64,000 bases of DNA from a virus. A model generated the notes under the pieces. That model was not told where the DNA came from. It did no database searches and saw only the letters and a program-made list of their open reading frames with translations. The stretch is from the IMG/VR virus record IMGVR_UViG_3300037089_000506, one strand, 5' to 3'. This document shows, one piece after another, positions 19,709-48,064 of the stretch. Each line of letters begins with the position of its first letter. Position 1 is the first letter of the stretch. The position numbers and the translations under genes are program-made.

Positions 19709-20209
19709 CTACCTACCACCGCCTTTCCTACCCAAAAAACGTGAGATAAATCCTTCCCTGTCAGTATCCTTCTTCTCTAAAGATACTGTTAGATTCTCTA
19801 CGGAACTTTTAGATGGAGCATTGAACCCCATCTTATTCAGTGCATCTAATAGAGGTGTCTTCTCTGTCAGCATATGCTTTACAGGCTTTTTAGTTTTTTT
19901 ACTATCAACTAAATTTTGAATTGAATCTAAGTAAGGAGCATCAGCTTCACTATGAGGGGTTAGATGAGTTACTGTCATATCTACAGTGTTTAATAAGTGA
20001 AAAGAAGTATCTCGCATACTTTCATATACATCATGAACTAGGGAAGGATAATGGTCCTTTATCATTTGCATAAAAGAATCCATATTCATTAGTCTTCTTG
20101 AAGGTGATCCATCCATATAGTACCACGTTGCGTTGCGGTCTAACCAATTCTGGTAAATGAGATACTGGAATTGAATTTCTGGATATTTAAACCTACCATA
20201 CTCATCCAT
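19709..20209 (-). CDS. Hypothetical protein
   Basis: ATG 20209 overlaps the stop of the GIY-YIG gene. Confidence 0.5.
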   Translation of the reverse strand: MDEYGRFKYPEIQFQYLIYQNWLDRNATWYYMDGSPSRRLMNMDSFMQMIKDHYPSLVHDVYESMRDTSFHLLNTVDMTVTHLTPHSEADAPYLDSIQNLVDSKKTKKPVKHMLTEKTPLLDALNKMGFNAPSKSSVENLTVSLEKKDTDREGFISRFLGRKGGGR

Positions 20210-21062
20210 AATAATATTCCCACTGGTAGTTACCAGTTTGTTTTTGTTTACCTTTACAACATTTTGTAATTGCACTATTATCTACATTATATTTTCCTGC
20301 TGCTAACTTAATATAAGCAAAAACTTCTCCGGTAGTAATACACCTAACCTGTCTACACCCTACATTTTTTTGGCCTAGCTTACACTCTCTTAATTTTTGT
20401 TTAGTTATTTCAGAGCGAGGTACCCCTAATTTACTCTGACTTATTTTTCTTTTATGCTCTTCAGACTTAGGATTATGCATATGTTGTTTATGCTTTTCAG
20501 TTTTAGGCTTTCCTTTACTGGCTAAACTCATTTTACTTTTTGTTTCAGTGGATATTGTTTTCCCCTTATGAAGATTACTTAATCTTTCCTTTGTTTCCTT
20601 AGAATGATGCTTACCCAGCATATTTAAATTTCCTACATGAGCTTTACCCATTAGTTTTTTTTCTTCTTCAGTATGCTTTCTACCATAATTTGGATTTTTA
20701 TCTCCTGCAAACCTTCCCTTCAATGATACAGATATTTTATTCCTAACTTCTTGATTCGGGCTGTTACCTATCTCTCCTCCTAAAGTCATATTATACCCTA
20801 ATTCCTTAAAATTAGTCCCAAACATTTCAATATAAATTTGTTCTAGCATACAAGCTTCTTCATCCGTTTGAGCTATGTCTAGCGTTTTCCAACAAAATTT
20901 ATTAAACCCATGCTTTCTTATAGAAGTATAAAATAGAGTATTAGTCCCACTTTTAGCATGGGACTTATGGCCTAATATTCTATTTCTTAGGTTTTGTTTA
21001 GTTTTTCCAATATATATTTTATTATTCACCATGTTAATAGCACAATATATTATTATACTCAT
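20202..21062 (-). CDS. GIY-YIG homing endonuclease with multiple NUMOD3 repeats
   Basis: IIYC...IYIGKT, EQIYI and GYNMTLGG; repeats of KHTEEEK, KHHSKETK and KSEEHKRKIS. Confidence 0.85.
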   Translation of the reverse strand: MSIIIYCAINMVNNKIYIGKTKQNLRNRILGHKSHAKSGTNTLFYTSIRKHGFNKFCWKTLDIAQTDEEACMLEQIYIEMFGTNFKELGYNMTLGGEIGNSPNQEVRNKISVSLKGRFAGDKNPNYGRKHTEEEKKLMGKAHVGNLNMLGKHHSKETKERLSNLHKGKTISTETKSKMSLASKGKPKTEKHKQHMHNPKSEEHKRKISQSKLGVPRSEITKQKLRECKLGQKNVGCRQVRCITTGEVFAYIKLAAGKYNVDNSAITKCCKGKQKQTGNYQWEYYYG

Positions 21063-22691: not shown

Positions 22692-24745
22692 TACAATTCT
22701 TAGATTTAAAAAACTGGATGAATATTTCTGATGCTCATTTAGAATTTATTGAGGGTATAAATCTAATCCAAGGTATTGTTGGTTCAGGTAAATCAGCAGT
22801 ATTTGCTGCTATAGCCTACGCCATTTCTGATTATAGGCGAGGAGATACATGGAGAGAATATATCAAGACTGGTGAAAAGTTTTTTGAGATTAGACTCGGC
22901 TATGTATTCGGAAACAATAAAGAGTCACCTATGGTACTGGTCATTAGGGGTGATACCGGAAGGGCTTCAGTTTCAAAAGAAGCATCATATAAAGGTAATA
23001 CCTATAAAAATTCAGAAGTTGACCAATTCCTTGGATTAAAGTTCGACTTGGATATTATGAGTAAAGTCATATTCAATCTCCAAGGTAAGCAACCATTAGC
23101 ATTAATGACACCAACAGAGAGAAGAGATATATTCAAGAAATTATTTAATTCAGATTTTATAGATATTGTAGAGAAAATAAAAATTGATAAGGACGAAATA
23201 CAGAAATCTATAATAGCAAAAAAAGCAGGAATAAATGCATTAAAAAATATGGAGTATCCCTTGTTTAGAGTTATTTCAGTGGATGAATCAGAATTAACTC
23301 AATTACAAGATGAATTAAAACAGGCGCATCTAACAGAGTATCTTTATGAGAAATTGGATATATATACTGATAAGTTAAATCAGTTAAATTCAACCCAACA
23401 AAAAATAGAAAAAGCTCAAAGAGAAGTTCAAAATTATTTGGTAAGAGAAGAAAGAACAAAAGAAATGCTAATTAAAATCCAAACGGATTATGAAGTAAAG
23501 AAAAATGAAATACAGCCTTTAATAGAGTCTATAGAAAGAATAAAAATATATATAGTACATAATAAGAAAGAAATGGATGGGTATAAATCCAAATTTAATA
23601 TAGAAGAAGTATATAAAGATTTACAAACCCAAGAAAACAAATTAATAGAATTAAAATCAGAAATAAGTATAAATAAAAAGTATTTAGAGACACATAAAAA
23701 AGGGAAATGTACAGAATGTGGTCAAGACTGCTCAATAGAGGGAATAGAAAAATTTACTAGTATTATTACTAAGTTCAATGAAGAAAAATTCCATATTGAA
23801 ACTAATATTACTATAGATAAAGGAACAATACAGAATTATGAAGAGGAAATGAAAAAATCTGACCGTATAGATTTAGATTATAAACAAGAAATAGAAAAAA
23901 AGGAAAATGAACTGGGGTATATTAGGCAAACCTTATCAGGGTATGAAGCCCGTATGGAGGAGATAAAAGAAGAGCTTATTCAACATAGTATTAGTATAGA
24001 TACTGCTCAAAAAAATATTAATGATACTCAAAAGGAAATGGTTAAGATTCAAGAATGGCTAGAAATAAATCCTAAACCTGAAATTAACGAAGCTACTAAT
24101 AAGTCTGTAAAAGATATTCAGGCTGCTATTGATGATATTCAGAAAAGAATTCAAAGCAATATAACTAAAGCTGAGATGAATGAGAAGTCAAAAAAAGCTA
24201 AAGAAAAAGATGAGAATACTATTATTAATTTGAACTTGGAGATAAATGCATTAGAGTCTAAAGTGAATAACCTCAATCTGGTTAATCAGATTTATACTAT
24301 TGACTTCCCTTCCTTTATTAATATGAAGGCGTGTAAGCTTCTAGAGTCTCATATGAATAGTTTCTTTGCTACTACTAAGGATCATTTTGAGGTAGCATTG
24401 CAATCTGACAAAAAAGGAATTTCATTCTATTATAAATCTAATTTAGAACCAGAATGGAGAAGTTTGAGGATGGTTTCCGGCTTTGAATCAGCGTTATCTA
24501 CATTAGGGTTTAATGTATCTGTAGCTCGTGCTTTTGGTTCTGACATGATTTTCTTAGATGAGCCTGAAGCAAATGCAGACCCACAAACAGCGGAAAAGCT
24601 GTTCGAAACAATAGCTTCCATAGGGGGCTTTAAGCAACTATTTGTAATTACACATAAAGAAAATGTACTCCCTATCCTTAGATATCAAGGAGCTAAAATC
24701 TATAAGGTAAAGGGAGGGGTATTTGAAAATAACATAGACTACTAA
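22688..24745 (+). CDS. SbcC/Rad50/gp46-like SMC ATPase
   Basis: GIVGSGKS, coiled coil with zinc hook CTECGQ, signature VSGFE, Walker B FLDEPE and H-loop ITH. Confidence 0.9.
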   Translation: MIQFLDLKNWMNISDAHLEFIEGINLIQGIVGSGKSAVFAAIAYAISDYRRGDTWREYIKTGEKFFEIRLGYVFGNNKESPMVLVIRGDTGRASVSKEASYKGNTYKNSEVDQFLGLKFDLDIMSKVIFNLQGKQPLALMTPTERRDIFKKLFNSDFIDIVEKIKIDKDEIQKSIIAKKAGINALKNMEYPLFRVISVDESELTQLQDELKQAHLTEYLYEKLDIYTDKLNQLNSTQQKIEKAQREVQNYLVREERTKEMLIKIQTDYEVKKNEIQPLIESIERIKIYIVHNKKEMDGYKSKFNIEEVYKDLQTQENKLIELKSEISINKKYLETHKKGKCTECGQDCSIEGIEKFTSIITKFNEEKFHIETNITIDKGTIQNYEEEMKKSDRIDLDYKQEIEKKENELGYIRQTLSGYEARMEEIKEELIQHSISIDTAQKNINDTQKEMVKIQEWLEINPKPEINEATNKSVKDIQAAIDDIQKRIQSNITKAEMNEKSKKAKEKDENTIINLNLEINALESKVNNLNLVNQIYTIDFPSFINMKACKLLESHMNSFFATTKDHFEVALQSDKKGISFYYKSNLEPEWRSLRMVSGFESALSTLGFNVSVARAFGSDMIFLDEPEANADPQTAEKLFETIASIGGFKQLFVITHKENVLPILRYQGAKIYKVKGGVFENNIDY

Positions 24746-24755
24746 AAGGAGCATC

Positions 24756-25217
24756 ATGAATAAGAGGTTTTCACGTAAGTTATACGAAGAGAATGATAAA
24801 AAAGGTAAGGAAGTTGCAATACAGTTTTTAAGGCAATTAGGTTATGGAGATTTAGACCCTACAGAGATGCTGAAAGATGGCGATATTCAAATGAAATTAA
24901 ATGGGCATAATTATATTGCTGAAGTAGAAATAAAATCTCAATGGAAGAATGAATCTAATTGGCAGACAATATGGCCAGATATCAGGGTTCCTCATAGGAA
25001 GGCAACGAGTAAGGCTAATTTTTATGTTATGTTCAATCATAATTGTACATGTTTAGGCATGATTGATATGAGTATAATAAAGGAATCTAAAATAACCCAA
25101 GTATCAAATAGGTTCATGGATAATGAGGATTTCTTTTCTATTCCTTATCAGCAGTGGACATTCTACCGGAGAGTAGAGACGGGCTGGGAGACTATTGACA
25201 ATTCACTAGAAGTTTAG
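24756..25217 (+). CDS. PD-(D/E)XK-type phage nuclease
   Basis: GDI...AEVEIK...VPHRK. Confidence 0.5.
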   Translation: MNKRFSRKLYEENDKKGKEVAIQFLRQLGYGDLDPTEMLKDGDIQMKLNGHNYIAEVEIKSQWKNESNWQTIWPDIRVPHRKATSKANFYVMFNHNCTCLGMIDMSIIKESKITQVSNRFMDNEDFFSIPYQQWTFYRRVETGWETIDNSLEV

Positions 25218-25223
25218 TATAGT
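25195..25223 (+). promoter_or_regulatory. Sigma70-type promoter of the radical SAM operon
   Basis: TTGACA-N17-TATAGT. Confidence 0.7.
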
Positions 25224-25240
25224 AATATAAGGAGCCTAAC

Positions 25241-26329
25241 ATGGCGATGAGCACCATAGTCAAGAATGTGAAATATTATAAGTCTAATAATTATAATTAT
25301 ACTTTTAATATGAAAACAGGACATTTCATGCGATGGGGTAGAACCATAAGTGATGATCCTCTATATTCTCCCTATGGTCCAGAAATACTAGATATTGAAA
25401 TAGCTTCTGGGGGTTGCAAGGGCGGCTGTCAATTTTGCTATAAGGGTAATCAACCTAATCTTCCTATAGAGTATATGGATATAGATACATATATAAAACT
25501 TTTTGAAAAAATAAATGTTCCTACTCTAACTCAAATAGCTTTTGGAATAACTGATATTGATGCTAATCCTGACTTTTGGAATATATTAAAATATACGAGG
25601 GATAGAGATATTATCCCTAATTATACTACTAATGGTATTGATGTTACTGAAGAAGTTGCAAAAAAAACAAAAGAATTATGTGGCGCTGTAGCTGTAAGTG
25701 TTTACAAGCATAATAAAGAAACAGCATATAACGCAATTAAGCTTTATACTGATACTGGCATGGACCAAGTAAATATACATTTTATGCTAGCTAAAGAGAC
25801 TTTAGATTTTGCTCATGAGGTTCTCCATGATATGAATGAAGACCCCCGGCTACGGAATATGAACGCTATTGTATTCTTACAATATAAGGATAAAAACCCT
25901 AAAGCCCATTATCATCCTCCTTCATTTCAAGAGTTTAAAACTTTAGTGGATTTTTGTTTATCTGATATGGTTAAATTTGGTTTTGATTCTTGCTCTTCTG
26001 CAATGTTCATGAAAGCAGTAGCAGATAGAGAAGATGCAGAAAAACTAATTCAATCAGTAGATAATTGTGAATCTACTTTGTTCTCTTTTTATATTGATGT
26101 TGATGGCAATGGCTACCCATGCTCATTTTTACAAGGACAAACTGAAGAGTGGAAAGAGGGTATTGACATTTTATCAATAGAGGATTATATTAAAGATGTA
26201 TGGTTCAATCCACGAGTAATACAATATAGAAAAACTCTATTGAATTCAAGTAAAAATTGTAATTGTAAGTATAGTGGAATGTGTAGGTCATGTTTTGTCT
26301 ATGATGTTAATGATTGTAAGGATAGATAA
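25241..26329 (+). CDS. Radical SAM enzyme with SPASM/Twitch-like C-terminus
   Basis: CKGGCQFC (CxxxCxxC); CES...IDVDGNGYPCSF; C-terminal CNC...CRSC...C. Confidence 0.9.
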   Translation: MAMSTIVKNVKYYKSNNYNYTFNMKTGHFMRWGRTISDDPLYSPYGPEILDIEIASGGCKGGCQFCYKGNQPNLPIEYMDIDTYIKLFEKINVPTLTQIAFGITDIDANPDFWNILKYTRDRDIIPNYTTNGIDVTEEVAKKTKELCGAVAVSVYKHNKETAYNAIKLYTDTGMDQVNIHFMLAKETLDFAHEVLHDMNEDPRLRNMNAIVFLQYKDKNPKAHYHPPSFQEFKTLVDFCLSDMVKFGFDSCSSAMFMKAVADREDAEKLIQSVDNCESTLFSFYIDVDGNGYPCSFLQGQTEEWKEGIDILSIEDYIKDVWFNPRVIQYRKTLLNSSKNCNCKYSGMCRSCFVYDVNDCKDR

Positions 26330-26538
26330 TGAAAGCAATTATTATTGAGGAATGTCGCTTTGCTGAGATTAGAGATGTACTAGATCTTCAAGCACAGAAG
26401 ATTTCAGAAGAAAATCCTAATCCTGAAATATGGGATAATGAATTGTGGAAAACTGTTGTATTAAAAGTATACAGAAATATCAATTATTATTTTGTTCGGT
26501 GGGCACAGGAACAGGGTGCTTCTGGTCTACATAAATAG
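26329..26538 (+). CDS. Hypothetical protein
   Basis: TAATG coupling with the radical SAM gene. Confidence 0.55.
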   Translation: MKAIIIEECRFAEIRDVLDLQAQKISEENPNPEIWDNELWKTVVLKVYRNINYYFVRWAQEQGASGLHK

Positions 26539-26548
26539 GGGGATTATA

Positions 26549-26908
26549 ATGAAAATTAGAGAAGGCTTTGTATCTAACAGTTCATCATCTTCATTTATTA
26601 TTGTTTGTAAATCTGTTACAATAGAAAATATTGATGATACTGATATTTGGTTTGAGGGTCATGGTTTGAGTGAGGGTATAGATTTTTTTGAGTTGGAGCC
26701 TGAAACTAAAGAAATAATCAAGACTAGGGGATTACCAGAGGATTGTTATCTACTTAAAGTAGCTAAGTATTCCTGTGAATATGATATGAATATTGATGAT
26801 GATTTCTCTTCCTTAGCAAAAAAAGGATATACAATTAAATCTATTGAAGTTGACAATTGGACATCTCAAGAGGCAGGTATATTTGAGGAGGAATACTATG
26901 AAGAGTAG
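26549..26908 (+). CDS. SNSS-motif protein 1
   Basis: Starts MKIREGFVSNSSSSSFII. Confidence 0.75.
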   Translation: MKIREGFVSNSSSSSFIIVCKSVTIENIDDTDIWFEGHGLSEGIDFFELEPETKEIIKTRGLPEDCYLLKVAKYSCEYDMNIDDDFSSLAKKGYTIKSIEVDNWTSQEAGIFEEEYYEE

Positions 26909-27398
26909 GGAAGGATTTGTATCAAATTCAAGTTCAAGTTCTTTTATTATTGGATATGGAATAATTAAGGACGAAAATTCTTTTAAGTCCTATATTAAAA
27001 AGAATAAAATCATAATAGATGGAACACAGGATTATAACACATATCAGAGTGAAGATTGGAATAGTATTATTAGCGTATTTGATACTTTTTATGAAATGAA
27101 AGCAGACAATAGAATTCTTTGTGGGGGAAATGATACTGAACTATTAGTCCCACAGAGCCTTAATAATTATTGGAATAAGAGAATAGCTATTGTAGAAATT
27201 CATAATGATGAAGGTGATGGCCCTCCTTTTATTTATGAAGAGAATGAAATGGATGGAACAGGTAACTTTAACTACGAAGTCGCCAAAAAAGAATCTTTTT
27301 ATTCTGAACGACAGCAATCTATTATCAATCTTTTCAAAGAAGAAACAGGTATATTGACAGATTGTAAAGTAGTTATTGGTGCGGAGAGAAATGGATGA
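26898..27398 (+). CDS. SNSS-motif protein 2
   Basis: Starts MKSREGFVSNSSSSSFII after a GAGGAGG RBS. Confidence 0.75.
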   Translation: MKSREGFVSNSSSSSFIIGYGIIKDENSFKSYIKKNKIIIDGTQDYNTYQSEDWNSIISVFDTFYEMKADNRILCGGNDTELLVPQSLNNYWNKRIAIVEIHNDEGDGPPFIYEENEMDGTGNFNYEVAKKESFYSERQQSIINLFKEETGILTDCKVVIGAERNG

Positions 27399-27775
27399 AA
27401 ATTAGATTAGGTTTTATATCAAATTCCTCAACTACCTCCTTTATTTTAGATGGAACAAAATATTCAGCTTCATTGATACGAGAAGTAATTGAAAATGTAT
27501 TAAAGGCTGTTTCTCTTATTGATAAAGAAGAATTTATTGTTGATGATATTTGTGAAATCTATGAAAGGTCAAGTGGACAAGAATTTCTAAATCAAATAAA
27601 GGGATTCTATGAAGGTATGAATCATGACTATTATGATGAGGAAATAAAATATTTAGATAAGGGTCAATTTGATAAACCTGCTATTATTGTGGATTCTACT
27701 TTTAGCAATTCTATTCCATGGCCTGTGCAAGAATTTTTAGAAGGAATTGCTATCAAAAGGCAGCATTGGGGGTAA
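27395..27775 (+). CDS. SNSS-motif protein 3
   Basis: Starts MKIRLGFISNSSTTSFIL. Confidence 0.75.
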   Translation: MKIRLGFISNSSTTSFILDGTKYSASLIREVIENVLKAVSLIDKEEFIVDDICEIYERSSGQEFLNQIKGFYEGMNHDYYDEEIKYLDKGQFDKPAIIVDSTFSNSIPWPVQEFLEGIAIKRQHWG

Positions 27776-27776
27776 T

Positions 27777-27965
27777 ATGAAATATCAATGCCCTTCCTGT
27801 AAATATGTATATGAAACTCCTCCCCTTAATATTGAATTTTATTCTACATCTAATCCTAATTATTATGATAGATACTATGGTAAAGGCTTTATAAGATATG
27901 AATCAGAGGAGATTGAATGTGGGGAATGTGGGTATAAATTTACACTTAAATTGGAGGACTTATGA
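27777..27965 (+). CDS. Small zinc-ribbon protein
   Basis: CPSC...CGECG. Confidence 0.6.
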   Translation: MKYQCPSCKYVYETPPLNIEFYSTSNPNYYDRYYGKGFIRYESEEIECGECGYKFTLKLEDL

Positions 27966-28486
27966 AGATACGTAAAGGTTTTGTTTCAAATAGTTCCACT
28001 ACAAGCTTTGTTTGTGATATATGTGGAGCTTCAGAAGCGGGTATGGATGCTTCCCCCCAAGATTTTGGTTTCATACAATGCCAAAATGAGCATATTATAT
28101 GTGAAGATGAAGCATTAGAAGGATATATTATCTATGATAATACTGGTAATAATGGTGATCCTGATGAATATTCATCTGAAATTCGTAATGCAGTAGATAT
28201 GATTGGTTCATGCATTTCCGAGGAATTTTGCCCTATTTGTCAATTTGAAGTAGCATCTAATAAAGATATTGATAGATACTTAAGTAAAAAATTTCCACAA
28301 TATACCCATGAGGACGTTTTTATAAAAGTAAAAGAAATAAATAAAAGAAGAAAGAAATTATATCCTAGTGAATATATACAATATGTATACGAAAAAACAG
28401 GGCTTAATGAAACTAAAATACTTTCTGAAATAAAAGAAACTTATAATGAGAAATATTCAAAATTCAAAGAATTTCTATTAGGTTGA
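27962..28486 (+). CDS. SNSS-motif protein 4 with Cys/His metal-binding motifs
   Basis: Starts MKIRKGFVSNSSTTSFVCDICG; also has CQNEH and CPIC. Confidence 0.75.
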   Translation: MKIRKGFVSNSSTTSFVCDICGASEAGMDASPQDFGFIQCQNEHIICEDEALEGYIIYDNTGNNGDPDEYSSEIRNAVDMIGSCISEEFCPICQFEVASNKDIDRYLSKKFPQYTHEDVFIKVKEINKRRKKLYPSEYIQYVYEKTGLNETKILSEIKETYNEKYSKFKEFLLG

Positions 28487-28511
28487 CATTTATCTTCAGT
28501 TGTAGTATACT
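28483..28511 (+). promoter_or_regulatory. Sigma70-type promoter
   Basis: TTGACA-N17-TATACT. Confidence 0.7.
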
Positions 28512-28527
28512 CTAAGGAGAGAATAAA

Positions 28528-28740
28528 ATGTTTGTATTACTTCGTATAACTGCTACTTTAATTATTCTATTAGGACTAGGGATTGTTGGTATCAATAGAG
28601 GATTAAAGCTTCAAGAGCATGATGCAAATTCTCCTGAAGATATTCTTGGTAGAAATTTACAAGTAGCAGGAGCTATAGTCACTACAGTTGCTGGTGTAGG
28701 GTTATTTGCTGCTTTATTGGTATTTATTTGGATATTATAA
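28528..28740 (+). CDS. Small two-TM membrane protein
   Basis: Two hydrophobic segments flanking a polar loop. Confidence 0.6.
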   Translation: MFVLLRITATLIILLGLGIVGINRGLKLQEHDANSPEDILGRNLQVAGAIVTTVAGVGLFAALLVFIWIL

Positions 28741-28750
28741 GGAGTATATT

Positions 28751-28885
28751 ATGGGTAAGAGAGGACGACCAGTGGGATATAAGGTACAGGAATCTACTAA
28801 AGCTTTGATTAGAGCTACACGAGCTACTAATAAAGCTAGAAAAGACAAGGCAGAAGAAAGGATAAAGGGGGATACCAATGTTTAA
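28751..28885 (+). CDS. Small basic protein with an AT-hook-like KRGRP (44 aa), missed by the ORF track
   Basis: AAGGAG RBS; reads MGKRGRPVGYKVQESTKALIRATR.... Confidence 0.55.
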   Translation: MGKRGRPVGYKVQESTKALIRATRATNKARKDKAEERIKGDTNV

Positions 28886-29183
28886 TAAAAAGAGAACTTT
28901 TTGGAAATTAGATATAGATTATACTATAAGTATAAGAACATCCCCTTTCCAACGTGAAGATTCATTTAGAACAGAGGGTCATGAATATGAATTTAATTTT
29001 CCTAATTATGAAGCTGCCTCTCTTTTTAAAAAAGAATTAGAAGAAAAAGGAAAGGCATATACAAATAATCAAAGTTTCTGTATAATGAAGGTAGAAGGAG
29101 TAGAACTTTTTGTAGAGAATTATTCTATAAGAGAATTAGAATGTAGAGAATCAGACTGGATTGAGATGTTTTCTACTAATTGA
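28878..29183 (+). CDS. Hypothetical protein
   Basis: GGGGGA RBS. Confidence 0.5.
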   Translation: MFNKKRTFWKLDIDYTISIRTSPFQREDSFRTEGHEYEFNFPNYEAASLFKKELEEKGKAYTNNQSFCIMKVEGVELFVENYSIRELECRESDWIEMFSTN

Positions 29184-29185
29184 GC

Positions 29186-29515
29186 ATGAAAGTAAAGATT
29201 GGCTATCTTACCTATGAAGTAAGAGAAGTCCCCTATATTGAAGTAAATGGAAATGAGGCTGCTAATGGAGAAGCAGATTATGAAAAGATAGAGATACAAA
29301 TAAGAAAAGCACTATTACCTCCTAAAAAAAGAGAGGTATTATTACATGAGATTCTTCATTGTGTCTGTGTAGATGGTAATATTGAATTATCAGAAAATGA
29401 GATAGAGGTTTTAGCAGCAGGATTAACACGATTTTTGGTAGATAATATTTCTTTAGTAAAGAAAGAAGTTCTTCAGGTAGAACGAGAGGCTATTGACAAT
29501 AAAGTAAAGAAGTGA
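29186..29515 (+). CDS. HExxH metallopeptidase-like phage protein
   Basis: EVLLHEILHC...E. Confidence 0.65.
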   Translation: MKVKIGYLTYEVREVPYIEVNGNEAANGEADYEKIEIQIRKALLPPKKREVLLHEILHCVCVDGNIELSENEIEVLAAGLTRFLVDNISLVKKEVLQVEREAIDNKVKK

Positions 29516-29521
29516 TAATAT
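29493..29521 (+). promoter_or_regulatory. Sigma70-type promoter with extended -10
   Basis: TTGACA-N17-TAATAT preceded by TGA. Confidence 0.6.
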
Positions 29522-29576
29522 CAGAGTTAAACACTCAAACATTAAAAGAAGGCCAGAGTGCCTATAAGGAGTTTTT

Positions 29577-30917
29577 ATGGCAAAGGTAGAGGACGATGAA
29601 TTTAAGGCTGCTGCAAGGCAAGCAGATGCCGAAGAGAAGGCAAGGCAAGCAGAGCGTAAGGCTCGGGCTGCTGCTGGTGGATTTGAGAAAATAAAATGGA
29701 CAGGGGTTTCCCAAACCCCAGGTATGCTTATCTTGAGGTTTCTAGGTAAGAAACCCGATTTGCATTATGGTACTACAATACCAACAATAACGCCTATTGA
29801 TGCTCGTGTTGTCAACCTAGCGAGGGTTATAGCCGACAATGGTAAGCAGATGGAGGTGGTATTGCCTTTATATGATAGGGATTCTAATCATATCATGTGG
29901 AGGATATATGATAGAATTAATACCATTGCTTGGGTAGAAGTAAAAGACGACAAAGACCCTACAAAAAAGAAGAGTGAGAAGTTCTATGTCAATAGAACTA
30001 AATATCCTGAGATATTTAACATTATTAACTATAATGGCTTGAATGAGAATGACCCACAACGAAAGTTTGGTTTACAGGGTAAGGGCTGGAAGGGAAAAGA
30101 AGTTCTTATTGTCAATGTCATTGATAGGGCTCTCTACGATTGGCACCATGCTAATAAACATTCTGTTTTGTTAGCAAAGAAAATAACCAATAAGACCTAT
30201 GCCGATGGAACACAAAATGAATTCGTAGAGAAGGGTGTACCTGCCTATGGACTTTCTGGACCTCTCACAAAGATTCGCATGGTATATGGAGATTGGGAGC
30301 AATATGATATCGCTTTCGAGCGCACAGGCTTGAAAGAGACTCCTGGTGAGGCTTTCAATGCCTCTAAGAATCCAGAGAAAGTATTAGACGAGACTCTACA
30401 GACTTTAATCTCCTCTGAGCCTCTGACTGAAGAAGAAGCATCATGGGAAAAATACGATCTTGACCATCTTTTTTCTCCTTCTACTTACACTAAGCTTTGG
30501 AATAGATTGCATTTGACTATAGAGAAAATAGATGCCCAACTTGGCACTTTTTACGCTGATGAGCTAAAGAATCTCGCTGACAAGGAAGTTGAAAGTAAGA
30601 TGGATTTTCCTCCTAGAGACGAAGGTGAATCAGAGTCCGAAAATGAGGAAAAATCCCCACCAGCTCCTCTTGCACGTAAGCTCTCCCCTGCTATTCCAGC
30701 AGTCCTTACTCCACAGGACCTACCCGGATGGACTTTTCTCAATGAGAAAGAGAAAGAATTGATTGTATCAATAAGTGCTCCTAGTGCTGGTAAAGCCTAT
30801 AAAATAGTCTTTAGCCCCCTAGCATCCAAGAGAATAGGGCCATGCCCTGAATGTAAGACTGATTCAACCGAGGACTTTACCCATTGTCCTGCATGTGGAG
30901 TTAAATTCGTGTACTAA
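29577..30917 (+). CDS. Possible gp32-like phage ssDNA-binding protein with a C-terminal zinc ribbon
   Basis: LILRFLG and LIVNVIDR strands, an acidic/Pro linker and CPEC...CPACG. It has its own promoter and terminator. Confidence 0.4.
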   Translation: MAKVEDDEFKAAARQADAEEKARQAERKARAAAGGFEKIKWTGVSQTPGMLILRFLGKKPDLHYGTTIPTITPIDARVVNLARVIADNGKQMEVVLPLYDRDSNHIMWRIYDRINTIAWVEVKDDKDPTKKKSEKFYVNRTKYPEIFNIINYNGLNENDPQRKFGLQGKGWKGKEVLIVNVIDRALYDWHHANKHSVLLAKKITNKTYADGTQNEFVEKGVPAYGLSGPLTKIRMVYGDWEQYDIAFERTGLKETPGEAFNASKNPEKVLDETLQTLISSEPLTEEEASWEKYDLDHLFSPSTYTKLWNRLHLTIEKIDAQLGTFYADELKNLADKEVESKMDFPPRDEGESESENEEKSPPAPLARKLSPAIPAVLTPQDLPGWTFLNEKEKELIVSISAPSAGKAYKIVFSPLASKRIGPCPECKTDSTEDFTHCPACGVKFVY

Positions 30918-37944: not shown

Positions 37945-40900
37945 TTATCTATTTAGTATCAATACCCAAATTCGCTCTATGCTAAAATCCGTTTTAGTTT
38001 GAACTACCTTACCAATAATAACACCAGGAATAAATCTATCAAAGAACATAGCCCGAGTGGCAAACCCATCTTTATCAGATATAAGTAAATCCCCTATGTT
38101 TAATGGTTCCTTTACCTTTACTTTTACCCGTCCAGTTAATCCTACAGGAGTTTTAGTTGTCTCATCTTGAGCGCCTAGAGCATAGCCAAAGGTATCAGAA
38201 TGAATACCAATAACTGTTTTATCTGCTCTCTTATCTGCTTTTTTTACCCCATTATTAGTAATTACTAATACATCTCCAGCTTCCGAAATACCCTCTCTAT
38301 GGATAAATTCTGCCATATCATTCCATATAGCATTATACATTTTAGTAGCATAGAGATACCCATTATATCCTAGTACTGCTGTTCCTGAAGGAGAAGTTAA
38401 ATTATATTGTAATACTCCAGCAGAACTTATCTGTAGTGTTCCCCCTATAAGAACATTAGCGTTTGTAGCCAAATCATAAGAAACATTAGGGGCCGTATTT
38501 ATTGATAGATAGCCTACGAACTCAAAAGTACCAGCATTTCCACTATATCCTGCAAATGTCAATTGAAGAGAAGCAGAGTTTGATGAGTTGGCACTATACA
38601 GAATATTGGCGCTCGCTATCTCCCCAAAACCTATCTGACCACTAGTGGATTTCAGATTAAACATAGTACCTGTGTTGATACCACTTATATTCGTAACTGT
38701 AGAGCCCGCTGTAGACCCTATGTTTATAGTAGAAGCGGTAGCAGTGAATATGTTCATGGTAGATTGATTAGTGAGAATTGTAGCTGTGTTTACATTAAAA
38801 GTACCTGCTATAGTCAATGTTGAACCGCCAGGGACAGTAGTGGTTCCAGTAAGGGTATTTGCAGAACTTCCATTTCCAATGTATATAGCAGTGGTAGAAG
38901 TTGTACCTATATTGATTGTAGCTGTATTAATAAGAATATTAGCAGTGGAGGAAGTAGATGTCATTGAAGAATAGATAGTAAGAGCACCAGTAGTGTTAGT
39001 CCCTACAGTTAGGTTATTAGTAGCAAAGCCATCGTAAAAATAAAGCTCTCCATCATAGTTTAGACGAACTGTGTTATGTGCAGGACTACTTGCACTTCTA
39101 TCAAAATACCCTGACCCTTGAACATTGTAGGCAGCAGTAAAATCTACAAGCCCTAAGGACCATACTTGGTTCATCTTCTGGTCCATATTATAATCAAAAT
39201 ATTTATTATATCTCTCAGTCTTATAAATTATTACCCTGAATTGCCATGTATTATCGATAGCTACATAGTTAGCAGGAGGAGATTGTCCATAAAGATAGTA
39301 GGCAAGTCCATCATCAGCGAAGTTTACTCGCACATATCCAGTAGTATCTGACTGCAATTGATAACCATATCTCTTATAACTCAAACCAGAATTATAAGTA
39401 ATAGTAATAGGATTAGGATCAATTTTATAAATACTTACATATTTATAAACATAGATTTCAGCAAATAAAGAAGTAAAATCAGGATTGTAAGAGAAAGTAG
39501 TAATAGGAACTTCGATATATTGAGTAGGTGTACCACTTGTACATCCACTAGGTAGTGCTCCCCATGTGGTCCACCCAGTATCATACCTAAATGAGGGGGC
39601 CTGTGGAGGATTGGATTGATACCAATTAGAATATTTTATTTCAGTTGCTGGTGTAGAAGTAGGAGGTAATCCAAAAGTAGTAGTACCATTCCCACCAAAG
39701 GTAGTTCCAATAACATTGAATAAATCGGGATAGGAAGAGATATTTGGAGTAGACCCATCACACGTTAGATACCCAGTATCCAGACTTGCTGGTTTAGCAA
39801 TAATAGAGCCAATCTGATTTCCATCAGATTTCTGAGTGTTATAACTTATATTTACATAGATAGAGCTAGGGGATTCCACGTATCCTAAAGGAGAAGCTAT
39901 GTCTGAATAGTAAGAAAGAGTAGCTAGGTTAGTAGTAAACCCACCATTGATATCAGCATATACTGGGGAGCCTGTTGATAGCCCTGACCATGCAGCAGAC
40001 GTTGTTACACCTACTTTTTGTATAACTACAGGGGTCTGCGCTATTATCTGTCCACCAAAATATATAGTTCGTGTTGTAGCTGATTGTGCTATAACAGAGA
40101 ATAATTGTAATGTTGGAGACCAAGACATAGTAGTCCATGTACTTGCATTCAAATTAGTAGGGGTAAATGAAACCCATGTTTTTCCATCAGAAGAATATGC
40201 TGCTGTGGCTGTAGTAGTATTACTAGCAATGGCTACAAATATATTTCTGTCAGGGCACCATTCTAATGTACTCCAATTAGAAGATGCTCCTGCTGCTGGC
40301 AATGATGAGGATTGCGCCCAGTTAACACCATCTACAGAAGACATTGACGTTCCTGTACCTACATTCGCAGCAGGGTTTACAGCAACGAATAACTTTAGGG
40401 TAGATGAGTATTTTACAGAAGTACCACCACCTGCGGGCATCCCAGTTCCACCAGCATTCCAAGTAATACCATCAGTAGAATAAGAGGAAGTTGCTGATCC
40501 TGAGGCTATAGCAACAAGTCTACCAGAGTCAGGGGACCAGTCAAGGGATGTCCACGTTGCTGAAGCAATATTAGTAGTTGGTGTCCATCCAGTTAATCCT
40601 GTTGAAGAGTATGCTGTAGTAGTTGATCCACTACATATGGCTACAAATTTTGTTAGAGAAGCACACCACTTGACTGCTACCCATGCTGCTGCTGAAGGCA
40701 TTGACATTGTTGTCCATACCTTCCCATCAGGAGAGGTGGCGGCTTGAGTATCACTAGTAGATATAGCAACCAATCGTCCTATTGATGGTGACCATGTTAC
40801 ATCTACCCAGTTCTTGGAAGCAGGGAGGGAAACTTGATTCCAGGTAACAGCATCAGTAGACCAATATGCATATGTAGAAGAAGAACCTAGAGCTACAAAT

Positions 40901-42432
40901 AATCCTAGTTCTGCTACCCACAATACTTTCTTTATAGTGGAGATTCCAATAGTTCCTGAATTAGTACTATACGTATTGGCATAACCAGTATTAGCTCCAA
41001 CTAAGAATCCAATGGGAGTATTTCTATTTACTGTTGCTATAGGCGTTAATGTTACTGTTGATGTACTTGATGTAGCTGTCCATGAGATGTTTCCACTAAA
41101 TGCATTTGCTATAGCTGTGGCAGTAAGTATAGTAGTAGTTTGGACTGCTGGATTTAATGATACTACAACACCAGCAATATTTACCGTATTTGATGTTCCA
41201 GCGATAGCAGTAACTGTTATCTGTGTTTGTGCAGCGTAGGAATACTGTAAGGATAATGCAGAGATAGTAACCCCAGTAGAAGCAACAGCCAAGGAAGGTA
41301 CGGCTACAGCAGTTAAGACTGTCATTGTTACTGCTGTTCCTTGGGCGGATACTGTCCATCCTGTAGGTAAACTCTGCGTCATTTTGTATGCTACCTGAGC
41401 AGCAGTATCAGAAGCCGCTACAGTTACAGTTCCACTTGCTGATCCTGACCACGTTAGAGTTCCTCCTGCGGAGGCTCCTGTCAATACAGAAAAAGTGATA
41501 ACTGTGGATTGAACTTGTATTTGGGTAAGCCCCACACCACAAGCATTATTGGTAATCAATACTTTGGGTTGAACATTATTATATGATTTTCTTCTATCCG
41601 CAGTATAAATAAGTCCATCAGAACCCATTGAAACTACTACAGGAGCTGCTGTATTGGGAATAACTTCACCAGCATTGGCGGTAATTTGGGTTAGTCCTGT
41701 CGCTCCTCTAACATCTCCTTGAAGGTCAATAATCATAGAAGATATAGATGTAACTACACCTACTTCTATTAAAGGTGAACCAGAGGAAGCAGCCAAGGAT
41801 CGAGAGGTAGTTAATTGTGGGTTAGAGCCTAAAGTTCCTGATGCTGTATAAGTAGAAGCCGCTGCTGGATATAAATAAAGAGGTAGTCCAATATCGGAAG
41901 TGTTAAAAGCAGTAGAAGCAAAGTTATAGGGACCCTCTGAGGCAACTTCAATAGCAAGACCAAAGGTTAGAGTCTGCGATCCTGTTACAGTCATTGCATT
42001 GCTTAATGTAACTTGGCTGCTTGAGTCTACTGAGCCTACAACTGTATTCACAGGCACACCAGTTCCTGTTACTAGAACTGGACCTGAAGTAAGCATAGTG
42101 TTAAGAGCAGCGGTAGAACCTGTTCCTGTAATGGTGTAAGACCCCGTTGCTAATGTTCCGGTTAATGTAATAGGAGTGGTAGCTGCCACTGTATTCATGG
42201 CTATACCGATTATTGCGGTTACGGAATTTGAATCCGCAATGGCTACCGTATTAGTAGGAGTAGTTTGTACTGCTACAGCATAACCTTTATATATGGTTTG
42301 TGCTGAACTTACCATATACCATGTTGAGGGTTGGAAGGAGAAATTCACTCCATGAATGTTTGTTGCTAATTGCTGTCTAGTAGAGTCACCTAAGATGAAT
42401 ACATCACCGTGCTCACTGGGATAATTTGCCAT
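37945..42432 (-). CDS. Long tail fibre / receptor-binding protein (1495 aa)
   Basis: Asp-box beta-propeller repeats (SxDGxxW), tail-collar domain (GYLTCDG...YPDLFNVIG...FGLP) and a C-terminal intramolecular-chaperone-like domain (NDMAEF...VGLTGRVKVKV). Confidence 0.8.
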   Translation of the reverse strand: MANYPSEHGDVFILGDSTRQQLATNIHGVNFSFQPSTWYMVSSAQTIYKGYAVAVQTTPTNTVAIADSNSVTAIIGIAMNTVAATTPITLTGTLATGSYTITGTGSTAALNTMLTSGPVLVTGTGVPVNTVVGSVDSSSQVTLSNAMTVTGSQTLTFGLAIEVASEGPYNFASTAFNTSDIGLPLYLYPAAASTYTASGTLGSNPQLTTSRSLAASSGSPLIEVGVVTSISSMIIDLQGDVRGATGLTQITANAGEVIPNTAAPVVVSMGSDGLIYTADRRKSYNNVQPKVLITNNACGVGLTQIQVQSTVITFSVLTGASAGGTLTWSGSASGTVTVAASDTAAQVAYKMTQSLPTGWTVSAQGTAVTMTVLTAVAVPSLAVASTGVTISALSLQYSYAAQTQITVTAIAGTSNTVNIAGVVVSLNPAVQTTTILTATAIANAFSGNISWTATSSTSTVTLTPIATVNRNTPIGFLVGANTGYANTYSTNSGTIGISTIKKVLWVAELGLFVALGSSSTYAYWSTDAVTWNQVSLPASKNWVDVTWSPSIGRLVAISTSDTQAATSPDGKVWTTMSMPSAAAWVAVKWCASLTKFVAICSGSTTTAYSSTGLTGWTPTTNIASATWTSLDWSPDSGRLVAIASGSATSSYSTDGITWNAGGTGMPAGGGTSVKYSSTLKLFVAVNPAANVGTGTSMSSVDGVNWAQSSSLPAAGASSNWSTLEWCPDRNIFVAIASNTTTATAAYSSDGKTWVSFTPTNLNASTWTTMSWSPTLQLFSVIAQSATTRTIYFGGQIIAQTPVVIQKVGVTTSAAWSGLSTGSPVYADINGGFTTNLATLSYYSDIASPLGYVESPSSIYVNISYNTQKSDGNQIGSIIAKPASLDTGYLTCDGSTPNISSYPDLFNVIGTTFGGNGTTTFGLPPTSTPATEIKYSNWYQSNPPQAPSFRYDTGWTTWGALPSGCTSGTPTQYIEVPITTFSYNPDFTSLFAEIYVYKYVSIYKIDPNPITITYNSGLSYKRYGYQLQSDTTGYVRVNFADDGLAYYLYGQSPPANYVAIDNTWQFRVIIYKTERYNKYFDYNMDQKMNQVWSLGLVDFTAAYNVQGSGYFDRSASSPAHNTVRLNYDGELYFYDGFATNNLTVGTNTTGALTIYSSMTSTSSTANILINTATINIGTTSTTAIYIGNGSSANTLTGTTTVPGGSTLTIAGTFNVNTATILTNQSTMNIFTATASTINIGSTAGSTVTNISGINTGTMFNLKSTSGQIGFGEIASANILYSANSSNSASLQLTFAGYSGNAGTFEFVGYLSINTAPNVSYDLATNANVLIGGTLQISSAGVLQYNLTSPSGTAVLGYNGYLYATKMYNAIWNDMAEFIHREGISEAGDVLVITNNGVKKADKRADKTVIGIHSDTFGYALGAQDETTKTPVGLTGRVKVKVKEPLNIGDLLISDKDGFATRAMFFDRFIPGVIIGKVVQTKTDFSIERIWVLILNR

Positions 42433-42462
42433 TAAAAAGCCTCTATCTAATTAGTCAGGATT

Positions 42463-45400
42463 TTATGAACCTATACGTTCTATTGTTATTCTAGGAGCCC
42501 CTGGAGTTGTTAGTCCTTGTAAGAATGTCCCTGAAGTGTTAGAATAAGAAACTACTACTTGAACATAATCACCTGCACGTAATCGTATTGTTTTATTCCC
42601 CCCAAGAACAAATATATTAGGAGTGGATGCCAAAACAGCGGTAGATGTCCAGGAGTTTATAGTAGAGAAGTAAGTACCATTCTTATAGAGATAAAGGAGC
42701 CACGTTTCTCCTGCGGCGAAGGCTTTTGCTGTTGCTAAACCTATATTAGTTTCTACAGAATATACTCCAGGTTGAGGTGCTGTAAACTTCCATCCTATAC
42801 CAGGAAGAACAGATGTATGAGTATCCTCAACGAGAGTGTCAAAGTTTACCACATTTCCTGATGTTGGAATTGTAGAAGATACAATAGCATACTCAGCACG
42901 AATTACTGGTGGTTGCTCTGCTGTATTACCTTGAGAACGTTTACGAAGCCTCCAATACCATGTGGTTATTGAAGACCACAATACTGTAGGAGAAGCTGCT
43001 GAAAAGAAATTTACACTTAAAGTAGTAGAGTTTATCGTAGTAACAGTTACCCCATATGCTGTAGTTCCATTTGTATAATAGCCTATTCCCAATTGATCAG
43101 GAGTCAACCATGAAGAGGTGGATACAGCAGGATTCATAAACTCTAAAATATAATCATCTCTATTAGTAAGAGTTTTCTGAAATTGAACATATTTTTGTAT
43201 TGATGTTAATGAAGAAGGGCTATATCCATAGATTAATGTACCATTGGCTCCATAGGCGAAAGAAGTAGTATCAGTAGTAGCATTAGCACTGCTGTTATAG
43301 CTATACTCTTGATAATCAGTAGAAAGATTAGTAGGAACGTTCCATTGGGCAATAGGAAGGCGTACATTATAATGAAACTCCAAAGATGCTGTAGTTAGCC
43401 CTGTCGTAGCAGAACCACAAATAGCCTCAGCAGTAGCAGAAGTAGAATAATAAAGTTTGAAAGAAGATAGAGATACTGAAGGAACAACATAAGCATGGGC
43501 TATATAATAATTACCACTAAAAAAGACTCGTCCTTCTCCTTGAATCTGAATAGGATTAGAATAAGAAGCAGAAGGAGCTATTTTAGTCCAGTCAATAGTC
43601 AGTCCAGAAGGTAATGGAAATAGATAATCACCAGAACCAGCATTATTATTTCCAACAGCATTAATAACCATATGGTAAGATAATTCCATATCGCTACCAT
43701 TTCTACTCCATTGTGCTATATAGTCATAGAAGGTCCCAGTACTACCAAAGGTAGGAGGGGTGACAGTTGCACCTAATTGTAATACACCATTAGCACCACC
43801 ATTAGTATACTGTGTCCATCCATTTATCATAGAAGAGGTTGTATTCAATAAATTTTGAGGAGTTACAGATACTGCGTTGAACTGGAAATATTCTCCTGTT
43901 CCGTTCCATCCTGTAGCACAATGAAATAATAGTCTGTATTGTGAAGAGGAAGAAGGTAAGAATGTAGCCAAGAACATAGAAGGAGAACCAGAGGTAGCTA
44001 GTACTGACTGTGTAGATAAGGGAATAAAGTTTAGATTAGCCTTATCATACAGATAAATCATAACATCACCAGAAGTGAAGTTATACGTATTGAATAAGAA
44101 AGAAATTTGGAATACCTGTGTAGTCATTCCATAATCTATAGAGAAGTCATAGGAAACACCCTGGCCTAATGAAGAAGCACCACCATAGGTGAGTCTCATA
44201 TCATAACTACCAAATAGTACAGAAGTATTTGTTGTTGAGAATACTACATTGGAAGCAGTTCCTCCTAATCCATTTGTAGGAACGGCAGTAGTATCGTTAT
44301 AGGCAAAATAACCTAATGGGACTGAAGCATTCTGCGGAGTATAATAAATATATGTAGATAATTGTAAACCAATAGACCTACCTACAAACTGTGCAGCATA
44401 TAGAGTACCATTATAGTTTAATCGTGTAAGAGTAGAGGGAGGATAGGATGTACCTGCATCAAATGACCCTACTGTTGAAGTAGTGCCGGTTATTGTTAAA
44501 TTTCCTGTAGCAGTTATGTTAGAAAATGTTTGAGTACCACTAAAACTCACCACACCTGCATACGTTATATTTCCACCAACAGTAAGATTATTACAGGTAA
44601 AATTATTTACATTAAAGGTTCCGCCATAGTTTAGTACTGTTGTAGCGCCTAAGGAAGAGGGTGATCTAGTGTGAGTCCAATAACCACTTGTTGGACCAGG
44701 AACACCACCGGGAGCAGTAGCTACTGTTCCAAAATAAGCACTAAAGATACCATTACTAGCAGCATCTTGAAATGCTAATGCTATTGAAGCACCAACACCA
44801 TTTATAGTAAATATATAGGGACCTGTTCCTGTAACACCAAAAGTAAAACAAGAAGTTAAATCATATGTTTCAGCATAATTACCAGCATTATTACCAGAAG
44901 CGATAAGCCCTAAAAAGTTAGGCCCTAAAATAGAATTAGCAGTAGTGCTGCTATTAGGATCAGCAGAATTTAATCCTAAATAAAACTCATAAATACCATT
45001 AGAAGTTCTATCATTAGAAACAGCAGTAACAATAATATTAGAAGCATTTCCTGTTGTTGTAAACGGACTATTAAATCCTAATGCAGATGCCCCTGAATTT
45101 AATGCTGCTTCAAAGGCTTGGGTGAAGGAAAGCATAGTAGTATAGAGTCCCGCCCCCACAGTACAAATCGTTGTTTTTCCAGCATATTTACTATCATTAA
45201 TACCTAAAATAAAAGTAGCAGGATAAGATAAGGTTAAATTAAAAGAAGGTACATTTGCTCCATATAATCTGAAGGACATTGCTATTGTAGAAGTATCGTT
45301 AGTATTATATCTAAGCCTATTATTCATATAGGCTAACAATGCTGTAGTAGTACTAAAAGGAGAACCATTTGCAGGAGAAGCATCATTAAAAGTTATAGTT

Positions 45401-45924
45401 CTAAAATTAGAGTTACTTACATTTATTGTAGTAGTACCGGCATTGTATACAATACTATTCCCCACTGCTACAGTAAACCCTAGAGGGCTTGTAGAGCCTA
45501 AGGCAAAAGTAGAAGAAGCAGAACAATTGAAAGTATGTGCTGTAGAGTAAAGATTAGAATAAGGAGTAGTTGGGCCAGAAAATAGAGACAGAGGAATACC
45601 AGAATAAAACTCTCCTGCGTATTCATTTAATCCATTATAAGTAACATATCCTATTGCTATGCTTCCAGATATAATAGACCTAGATTCTATATTAGAAATA
45701 CGAGTAGTATTATCAATAGCATTGACAAATAGATTATAAAAGTTGGTATTTATTGCCTCGCCTGTGAAAGGAGAAACTACAGTGCTATTGGTTCCTACAG
45801 CGGAAGAGGTGCTGCCTGAAAATGGATAAGTTGTAGTGCTACTATCTGTTCCCGTAGGATCGGTGCCTACAATTGTTGGTGGTCTTAGAAGTGTTGCTAA
45901 TGTAGTAAGTGAAAAATATGCCAT
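42463..45924 (-). CDS. Tail fibre-like protein with a C-terminal C1q/TNF-like domain (1153 aa)
   Basis: VNFDT...FTAPQPGVYSV...LYKNG...LRAGDYVQV. Confidence 0.65.
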   Translation of the reverse strand: MAYFSLTTLATLLRPPTIVGTDPTGTDSSTTTYPFSGSTSSAVGTNSTVVSPFTGEAINTNFYNLFVNAIDNTTRISNIESRSIISGSIAIGYVTYNGLNEYAGEFYSGIPLSLFSGPTTPYSNLYSTAHTFNCSASSTFALGSTSPLGFTVAVGNSIVYNAGTTTINVSNSNFRTITFNDASPANGSPFSTTTALLAYMNNRLRYNTNDTSTIAMSFRLYGANVPSFNLTLSYPATFILGINDSKYAGKTTICTVGAGLYTTMLSFTQAFEAALNSGASALGFNSPFTTTGNASNIIVTAVSNDRTSNGIYEFYLGLNSADPNSSTTANSILGPNFLGLIASGNNAGNYAETYDLTSCFTFGVTGTGPYIFTINGVGASIALAFQDAASNGIFSAYFGTVATAPGGVPGPTSGYWTHTRSPSSLGATTVLNYGGTFNVNNFTCNNLTVGGNITYAGVVSFSGTQTFSNITATGNLTITGTTSTVGSFDAGTSYPPSTLTRLNYNGTLYAAQFVGRSIGLQLSTYIYYTPQNASVPLGYFAYNDTTAVPTNGLGGTASNVVFSTTNTSVLFGSYDMRLTYGGASSLGQGVSYDFSIDYGMTTQVFQISFLFNTYNFTSGDVMIYLYDKANLNFIPLSTQSVLATSGSPSMFLATFLPSSSSQYRLLFHCATGWNGTGEYFQFNAVSVTPQNLLNTTSSMINGWTQYTNGGANGVLQLGATVTPPTFGSTGTFYDYIAQWSRNGSDMELSYHMVINAVGNNNAGSGDYLFPLPSGLTIDWTKIAPSASYSNPIQIQGEGRVFFSGNYYIAHAYVVPSVSLSSFKLYYSTSATAEAICGSATTGLTTASLEFHYNVRLPIAQWNVPTNLSTDYQEYSYNSSANATTDTTSFAYGANGTLIYGYSPSSLTSIQKYVQFQKTLTNRDDYILEFMNPAVSTSSWLTPDQLGIGYYTNGTTAYGVTVTTINSTTLSVNFFSAASPTVLWSSITTWYWRLRKRSQGNTAEQPPVIRAEYAIVSSTIPTSGNVVNFDTLVEDTHTSVLPGIGWKFTAPQPGVYSVETNIGLATAKAFAAGETWLLYLYKNGTYFSTINSWTSTAVLASTPNIFVLGGNKTIRLRAGDYVQVVVSYSNTSGTFLQGLTTPGAPRITIERIGS

Positions 45925-45932
45925 TTATTCCT

Positions 45933-48049: not shown

Positions 48050-48064
48050 ATATAATTAGTCCTT

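Follow-up and report, generated by a model that had tools for sequence, protein, structure and literature searches.

Here we describe a cassette in a 64,000-nucleotide stretch of DNA (called the window below) from a large uncultured phage, IMG/VR record IMGVR_UViG_3300037089_000506. In this cassette, a gene for a radical S-adenosylmethionine (SAM) enzyme stands upstream of four genes whose proteins begin with nearly the same 16 residues and do not align thereafter. This N-terminal sequence, referred to as the tag, recurs together with the same enzyme family in phages, bacteria and archaea, and some direct functional partnership of enzyme and tag is very probable. More specifically, the enzyme may bind the tag and modify it covalently on several client proteins. 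We infer the binding, the modification, its chemistry and the role of the clients, and give this specific reading an even chance. The recurrence of the pairing in many phages and in bacterial immune operons suggests a system for marking whole proteins that has not previously been described.

A shared N-terminal tag on four unrelated proteins

The cassette is a single, tightly packed unit on the + strand (25195-28486) with overlapping or abutting genes. Four of its genes, starting at 26549, 26898, 27395 and 27962, open with the 16-residue tag MKxRxGF(V/I)SNSS(S/T)(S/T)SF. A degenerate DNA pattern for this 16-mer has exactly four matches in the 64 kb, compared to 0.00 expected from 100 shuffles, and no SNSS-type start occurs elsewhere in the window in any frame. 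An earlier note on this DNA, made from the letters alone, had listed the radical SAM gene, the four tagged starts and a zinc-ribbon gene. All of these were recovered where it had placed them, and a 69-amino-acid (aa) open reading frame (ORF) at 26329-26538 is additional. The features of the unit are as follows.

25195-25223, + strand: sigma-70-type, early-like promoter candidate TTGACA-17-TATAGT, score 11/12, a consensus match only
25241-26329, + strand: 362-aa radical SAM enzyme of phrog_7293, C-terminal domain of SPASM/twitch type (Pfam, PHROGs)
26329-26538, + strand: untagged 69-aa ORF, not conserved; its start overlaps the enzyme stop (ORF list)
26549-26908, + strand: tagged protein 1, 119 aa, isoelectric point (pI) 4.25, MKIREGFVSNSSSSSF (tag pattern)
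26898-27398, + strand: tagged protein 2, 166 aa, pI 4.61, end GAERNG, of the RB43/RB16 (RB16p106) subfamily (tag pattern)
27395-27775, + strand: tagged protein 3, 126 aa, pI 4.69, MKIRLGFISNSSTTSF, end QHWG (tag pattern)
27777-27965, + strand: untagged zinc-ribbon ORF, 62 aa, CxxC...CxxC (weak Pfam Zn_ribbon_4 match)
27962-28486, + strand: tagged protein 4, 174 aa, pI 4.84; tag followed directly by a zinc-binding module, then a helical bundle (tag pattern, AlphaFold)
28483-28511, + strand: next promoter candidate TTGACA-17-TATACT, score 11/12, at the downstream edge of the unit

The tag is conserved at the protein level, because many of the codon differences between its copies are synonymous. 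In pairwise comparisons, 5-9 of 11-15 identical residues differ in codon, including switches of serine between TCN and AGY, and the copies have a nucleotide identity of 58-71%. Both the protein-level conservation and the lack of a recent DNA duplication, as the note had read them, are borne out by these figures. The same figures rule out the 48 nucleotides (nt) as a DNA-level site of recombination or shuffling, or as a translation signal. A prohead-protease cleavage site within the tag was also considered and is ruled out by the variation at position 5.

Past approximately residue 18 the four proteins do not align, and no BLAST or hidden Markov model (HMM) links were found among their bodies. 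All four are acidic (pI 4.25-4.84). Three of them terminate in Gly, where the note had counted two: ERNG (27384-27395), QHWG (27761-27772) and FLLG (28472-28483). C-terminal Gly is enriched in the tagged phage proteins collected below (50/258 proteins and 18/91 clusters, compared to 6.3% Gly overall), and an end of the form [R/Y/W/K]-[D/N]-G recurs in seven BLAST-distinct clusters of them. This end may be a second functional element that lies near the tag in the fold.

Co-occurrence of tag and enzyme

The 16-mer DNA pattern matched at least 119 stretches in IMG/VR. Among the matches listed, 44 of the 119 motif-picked viral loci contain a homolog of the enzyme in the short stretch fetched, nearly always directly upstream of the tagged genes and on the same strand. 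Viral loci picked by the enzyme have tagged genes within 5 kb in all cases (10/10). For 49 tagged contigs without the enzyme in the fetched stretch, a search of the whole contig found it elsewhere in 27, and those still without it are mostly small fragments. In tagged records that are at least 90% complete and whose locus lacked the enzyme, it was present elsewhere on the contig every time (7/7). Isolated phages agree with this: 172 of 50,697 records carry the enzyme and 174 carry an RB43-type tagged protein, with almost identical host-genus counts. In the RB43-like isolates the enzyme lies approximately 24 kb from the tagged genes, and its immediate neighbors are untagged. Since the enzyme may be found elsewhere on a contig and at such a distance in isolates, the partnership is stronger at the level of the genome than as adjacency. 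In Escherichia phage RB16 (3078-7468), the tagged proteins RB16p111 and RB16p106 bracket RB16p109, a 739-aa protein with an N-terminal von Willebrand factor A domain; all are annotated as hypothetical.

For bacterial and archaeal assemblies, the motif pattern was relaxed at position 6 and matched at least 120 stretches. Among the matches listed, an enzyme homolog lies within 8 kb in 81/120 loci, and most loci bear the variant tag MKIRTDFVTNSSSSSF. The tag variant follows the enzyme clade, with G6/S9 in phages and D6/T9 in bacteria, and the G and D forms never occur together in one locus. G6/S9 tags adjoin enzymes with a median identity of 41% to that of the window, compared to a median of 29% for D6/T9 tags; the window enzyme is 26-33% identical to the enzymes of D6/T9 and G6/T9 cellular loci. 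In a maximum-likelihood tree of 104 enzymes, the window enzyme belongs to a 43-row clade (Shimodaira-Hasegawa-like approximate likelihood ratio test, SH-aLRT, 100) in which every row has G6/S9 tags. Along this tree 8 changes of tag label are counted, compared to 41.8 for shuffled labels. At the level of sequence, tag and enzyme show long and stable co-inheritance, which does not by itself prove co-evolution. The motif was not found to occur independently of the radical SAM gene in these counts. The suggestion in the earlier note that the SNSS segment is a tag tied to the enzyme is thus supported by strong viral and cellular co-occurrence and by a tag variant that follows the enzyme clade.

Spread of the tag

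Tagged phage genes often stand in same-strand arrays of two to eight, and 258 distinct tagged viral proteins were recovered, which form 91 BLAST clusters by body (both among the IMG/VR matches listed). The near-invariant positions of the tag are M1, K2, R4, G6, N10, S11, S12 and S15. The recovered proteins have a median pI of 4.64, and 91% of them are below 5.5. No convincing Pfam family was found on 64 tagged representatives. A tag profile, which had been proposed as a check together with genomic co-occurrence, was built from these 64 representatives and searched against 1.84 billion representative proteins; it returned 26,187 clusters (50% identity) at E ≤ 0.001. In nearly all of the 150 matches listed of the 26,187, the match begins at residue 1. 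Internal tags were considered and rejected: the few proteins that show two tags represent neighboring genes that were run together, since each of their tags retains its own Met-Lys. In the literature library searched, no paper contains the motif strings.

In bacteria, the tag is likewise found at the start of proteins as long as 1,814 aa, with bodies of the leucine-rich repeat (LRR), TIR or HIRAN type. In gut Bacillota assemblies (L190, 3-7816; L228, 1186-3414; L133, 429-1964), for example, the D6/T9 tag is found on very large proteins that contain BspA-type LRR arrays, a TIR domain or HIRAN domains. Judged by the sequences that carry it, the tag is a portable N-terminal module.

Bodies of the tagged proteins and position of the tag

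The bodies of tagged proteins 1 and 3 are orphans. The first is a singleton among the 258 tagged proteins by BLAST and HMM, and the third has just three homologs among 5.8 billion proteins. Tagged protein 2 was placed by iterative HMM search in a subfamily with a C-terminal G-x-x-R/Y-D/N-G end, which includes the 155-aa tagged protein RB16p106 of phage RB16, identical in RB43. Tagged protein 4 belongs to a 25-member zinc-binding cluster in which C18, C40 and C90-P-x-C93 are invariant. Pfam, NCBIfam and PADLOC searches of the tagged proteins found nothing, and the sole PHROGs match was a weak N-terminal one to phrog_7397. Matches in the ESM Atlas were to viral hypothetical clusters only, and the 126-aa and 174-aa proteins had no tblastn match in isolated phages.

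Tagged proteins 2 and 4 were modelled with AlphaFold, from shallow alignments of 12 and 24 sequences. The model of tagged protein 2 (predicted local distance difference test, pLDDT, 63; residues 1-12 below 50) is a β-α sandwich with weak, ferredoxin-like PDB matches (Z < 5). The model of tagged protein 4 (pLDDT 86; first 10 residues averaging 53) consists of the zinc module and a helical bundle, and Foldseek found no match to it in the PDB. Taken together, Foldseek against the PDB and VIA-align found no convincing fold match for the two client models. In both, the first 10-12 residues are a low-confidence coil and the first strand begins at residue 13, in the SSSF-aliphatic stretch. The models argue that the tag is an exposed, flexible tail before two different folds, and not a buried element of one known fold. 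The divergence of the bodies after the motif, noted earlier, thus extends to two different modelled folds, and the buried hairpin of a known fold that had been considered for the motif was not found: residues 1-12 are a low-confidence tail and no PDB match was convincing.

These models bear on an alternative in which the tag is a shared structural or catalytic element, a Ser-rich strand and loop that would bind phosphate, a metal or a cofactor, with an indirect link to the enzyme. The order of a hydrophobic strand and then a Ser-rich loop is reminiscent of nucleotide-binding loops, and residues 13-18 (SSSF and two aliphatics) are modelled as the start of the first β-strand in both folds. However, the two modelled bodies differ in fold, the bodies form 91 sequence clusters, and the tag heads LRR, TIR and HIRAN proteins as well. 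Residues 1-12, the most conserved part, are unpacked in both models, and the tie to a single enzyme family would be left unexplained, so that we consider a shared element improbable. Of the two options raised in the earlier note, the tag is favored, whereas the shared catalytic strand is disfavored by a tail that precedes two folds.

The radical SAM enzyme

The enzyme matches Pfam Radical_SAM (PF04055) at 36.1 bits, compared to a cut-off of 29.5 (E = 9e-9), and SPASM at 22.4 bits, compared to a cut-off of 21.5. It also has a full-length match to phrog_7293 (E = 1.6e-85; its residues 8-356 align to positions 22-363 of the 384 in the profile), a group of phage radical SAM proteins with no function annotated. 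The CX3CX2C motif that defines the radical SAM superfamily, where it holds the SAM-cleaving [4Fe-4S] cluster in a partial TIM barrel, is C59-x3-C63-x2-C66 and is invariant in 30 homologs, as are C251, C276, C294 and C351. The extra C-terminal cysteines pointed out at first reading are present. A SPASM domain with two auxiliary clusters is recognized by a seven-cysteine pattern that includes CX2CX5CX3C. From the conserved cysteines, the family minimum looks like one auxiliary cluster in a twitch-like domain, and the window enzyme, with further C-terminal cysteines, looks like a fuller SPASM domain. Among solved sequences, SkfB (E = 8.6e-5), a twitch-domain peptide maturase, and BtrN come nearest, and these relatives use their twitch domains to act on peptides or small substrates; higher-ranked pentatricopeptide repeat (PPR) matches are repeat artefacts. 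Curated NCBIfam maturase models all score far below their cut-offs, and a literature search returned no paper on what the phage enzyme does.

Before CX3CX2C, the N-terminus of the enzyme family is extended by approximately 45 strongly conserved residues, with the consensus YNYxFxKxxGxFxRWGKTxEDDP...GPEILDIE (window 25241-25400; alignment columns 20-90). This conserved extension is a candidate tag-binding element, and it is possible that it holds a small structural equivalent of a recognition element. In an IMG/VR contig of 547,943 bases (CheckV 100% complete; locus L082), an enzyme homolog at 87458-88453 has one in-frame TAG, which may mean that stop codons are recoded in a megaphage or that the gene is broken.

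Bacterial operons with the tag

A recurrent bacterial operon has the order Avs2-like STAND/NACHT protein, ~135-aa protein, ~138-aa tagged protein, radical SAM enzyme and ~310-aa protein (for example L235, 659-5365, and L135, 1061-6831; also L142, L153, L201 and L239). The STAND protein matches Avs2 in PADLOC (E ~1e-15) and has a SMEK or nuclease-like N-terminus. The ~310-aa protein contains an M1E1E6-like integron-cassette domain.

These operons also speak to whether the tag serves another machine altogether, as a degron, a chaperone signal or a virion-packaging signal, with the enzyme just a frequent neighbor. The internal proteins of T4 carry a capsid-targeting sequence, which likewise provides small, variable phage proteins with a conserved address at the N-terminus, and the distance that can separate enzyme and tagged genes in a genome would fit such a role. 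Yet co-occurrence at the genome level with one rare enzyme family extends across phages, bacteria and archaea, the tag is present in Avs2-type operons where there is no virion, and the variable position 5 leaves no conserved cleavage motif of the prohead-protease type. We consider this explanation highly improbable.

The operons have the same layout as the KpAvs2-Avap1-Avap2 operon, in which the radical SAM protein Avap1 and the small DUF6375 protein Avap2 assist defence, with both roles left open (Bechon et al. 2024, PMC11564622): each combines an Avs2-like STAND/NACHT protein with a radical SAM enzyme and small proteins. The phage cassette of the window differs from the KpAvs2 operon in having no adjacent STAND protein, and the tagged proteins differ in lacking DUF6375, the marker of Avap2 in that paper. 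DUF6375 (PF19902) had no match in 64 phage and 8 bacterial tagged proteins, and none on the tagged genes of five genomes at E ≤ 1; the published assignment was made by HHpred, which is more sensitive than the search used here. DUF6375 is thus unsupported as the identity of the tagged proteins. The bacterial sister loci were likened to the KpAvs2 operon by layout and markers; because DUF6375 does not match the tagged proteins, equivalence of the two is unproven.

Avap2 is a small accessory protein that binds the STAND protein (PMC11564622), which lends some weight to docking without chemistry on the tag, as does the role of Avap1 left open there. Here the tag would recruit the variable bodies to the enzyme as targeting or regulatory subunits, and the true substrate would be a third molecule, such as a host protein, a nucleic acid or a metabolite. 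The same co-occurrence and covariation data apply to this model, and the bacterial bodies include the binding modules LRR and HIRAN. However, the closest SPASM/twitch enzymes act on the peptide that they bind (PMC10114670). In addition, the seven consecutive small polar residues S9-S15 are near-invariant, seemingly more than a docking strand needs. Docking alone seems unlikely to us, though it carries appreciable weight.

Cassette layout and neighboring genes

The earlier note had described the cassette as bounded by promoters at 25195 and 28483. Both sites are present, each scoring 11/12, but this AT-rich region holds no excess of consensus matches (47 found compared to 43 expected), so that the two promoters are plausible and not proven. 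The first candidate ends 18 nt 5' of the radical SAM start, with a Shine-Dalgarno sequence AAGGAG in between. The 69-aa ORF has no family match in Pfam, PHROGs or NCBIfam, and neither it nor the 62-aa zinc-ribbon ORF has a homolog among the collected phage loci. Consequently, the two were rejected as conserved partners, for example as a stand-alone recognition element.

The phage is distant from cultured ones, as blastn of 24000-30000 against isolated phages gave no match. Elsewhere in the window, a 286-aa homing endonuclease whose N-terminus is of the GIY-YIG type (20202-21062, - strand; phrog_314, E = 4.5e-43) lies upstream of an SbcC-like gene. Three very large ORFs (1,495, 1,153 and 1,235 aa) at 37945-51772 (- strand) are near a baseplate wedge gene and have no PHROG match at E ≤ 1e-5.

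Proposed mechanism

The cassette can be pictured as an enzyme-plus-clients module. The radical SAM (SPASM/twitch) enzyme would recognize the exposed N-terminal MKxRxGFVSNSSSSSF on each of the four downstream proteins and, by means of a 5'-deoxyadenosyl radical, alter the tag covalently. Likely chemistries would be oxidation of a Ser β-carbon, or a cross-link of F7 with S9 or N10 in the FxSxx-like stretch F7-S11. The clients would be early proteins that are small, acidic and quick to evolve and whose folds are unrelated. They are probably host-takeover or counter-defence effectors, as suggested by the promoter of early type, by their small size and acidity and by how rapidly the bodies turn over, and would need the mark for activity, stability or assembly.

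Several observations weigh against modification of the tag by the enzyme. The enzyme has no recognizable recognition element of the kind used for RiPPs (peptides made on the ribosome and modified after translation), as judged by Pfam: no PqqD-type match was found at E ≤ 0.1 in the enzyme or in the 69-aa ORF. The separation of approximately 24 kb in RB43-like isolates means that co-transcription is not required. The low AlphaFold confidence of the tail may partly reflect the shallow alignments, and joint inheritance of a linked module could account for much of the co-occurrence and covariation.

Should the tag prove to be modified by the enzyme, whole proteins would be altered by radical chemistry through a portable address of 16 residues, one that would occur in at least 26,000 protein clusters for which neither a Pfam family nor a paper in the library searched was found. 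A conserved block of hypothetical genes in the T4-like phages RB43 and RB16 and in KP15-like Klebsiella phages would thereby acquire a function. Were the bacterial sister form the same system, the radical SAM accessory of Avs2 defence operons could gain a testable role. There could also be practical use for a short tag by which an enzyme is recruited to any protein. On the broadest reading, this would be general protein tagging, in which one radical SAM family covalently marks an invariant N-terminal 16-mer on tens of thousands of unrelated proteins, in phage early-effector arrays as well as in Avs2-type immune operons, as a new post-translational modification at the center of phage-host conflict. 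We place this somewhat short of an even chance.

Comparison with known systems

The general logic, in which a radical SAM enzyme is paired with its own tagged substrates, is already known. What we did not find described in the literature searched are whole-protein clients of unrelated folds, an invariant tag at the extreme N-terminus, multi-client arrays in phages and a mirror form in immune operons. By analogy, the closest parallels appear to be the leader-dependent SPASM/twitch maturases and, for whole-protein substrates, anSME/AtsB.

Like SkfB, SuiB/StrB, CteB and PqqE, the window enzyme has both a radical SAM core and an Fe-S domain at its C-terminus, and its gene stands beside several putative substrates with a common recognition sequence that are variable elsewhere. 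In contrast to the substrates of those maturases, the putative substrates here are full proteins that are unrelated in fold and measure 100-300 aa, or up to 1,814 aa in bacteria. It is their extreme N-terminus that is conserved and that is itself the likely target, and no recognition-element domain was detected.

The SPASM enzyme anSME/AtsB modifies whole proteins near their N-terminal region by hydrogen abstraction from the β-carbon of Ser or Cys (PMC10114670). This Ser-directed modification of a whole protein resembles what is proposed for the serine-rich tag. However, the tag has no sulfatase motif C/S-x-P/A-x-R, the clients are not sulfatases, and one enzyme would serve many unrelated folds. 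There was no anSME model among the NCBIfam matches of the enzyme.

A further likeness is to FxsB, one of the radical SAM enzymes that form three-residue cyclophanes (PMC10114670), and to the radical SAM/SPASM genes that accompany FxSxx-ending peptides in conflict systems (PMC7159879). The enzyme has no match to the FxsB model of NCBIfam. Tag residues 7-11 (F-V-S-N-S) read FxSxx, a likeness of a five-residue pattern only. In the FxsB/triceptide systems FxSxx lies at the C-terminus of a cleaved peptide, whereas here it is N-terminal.

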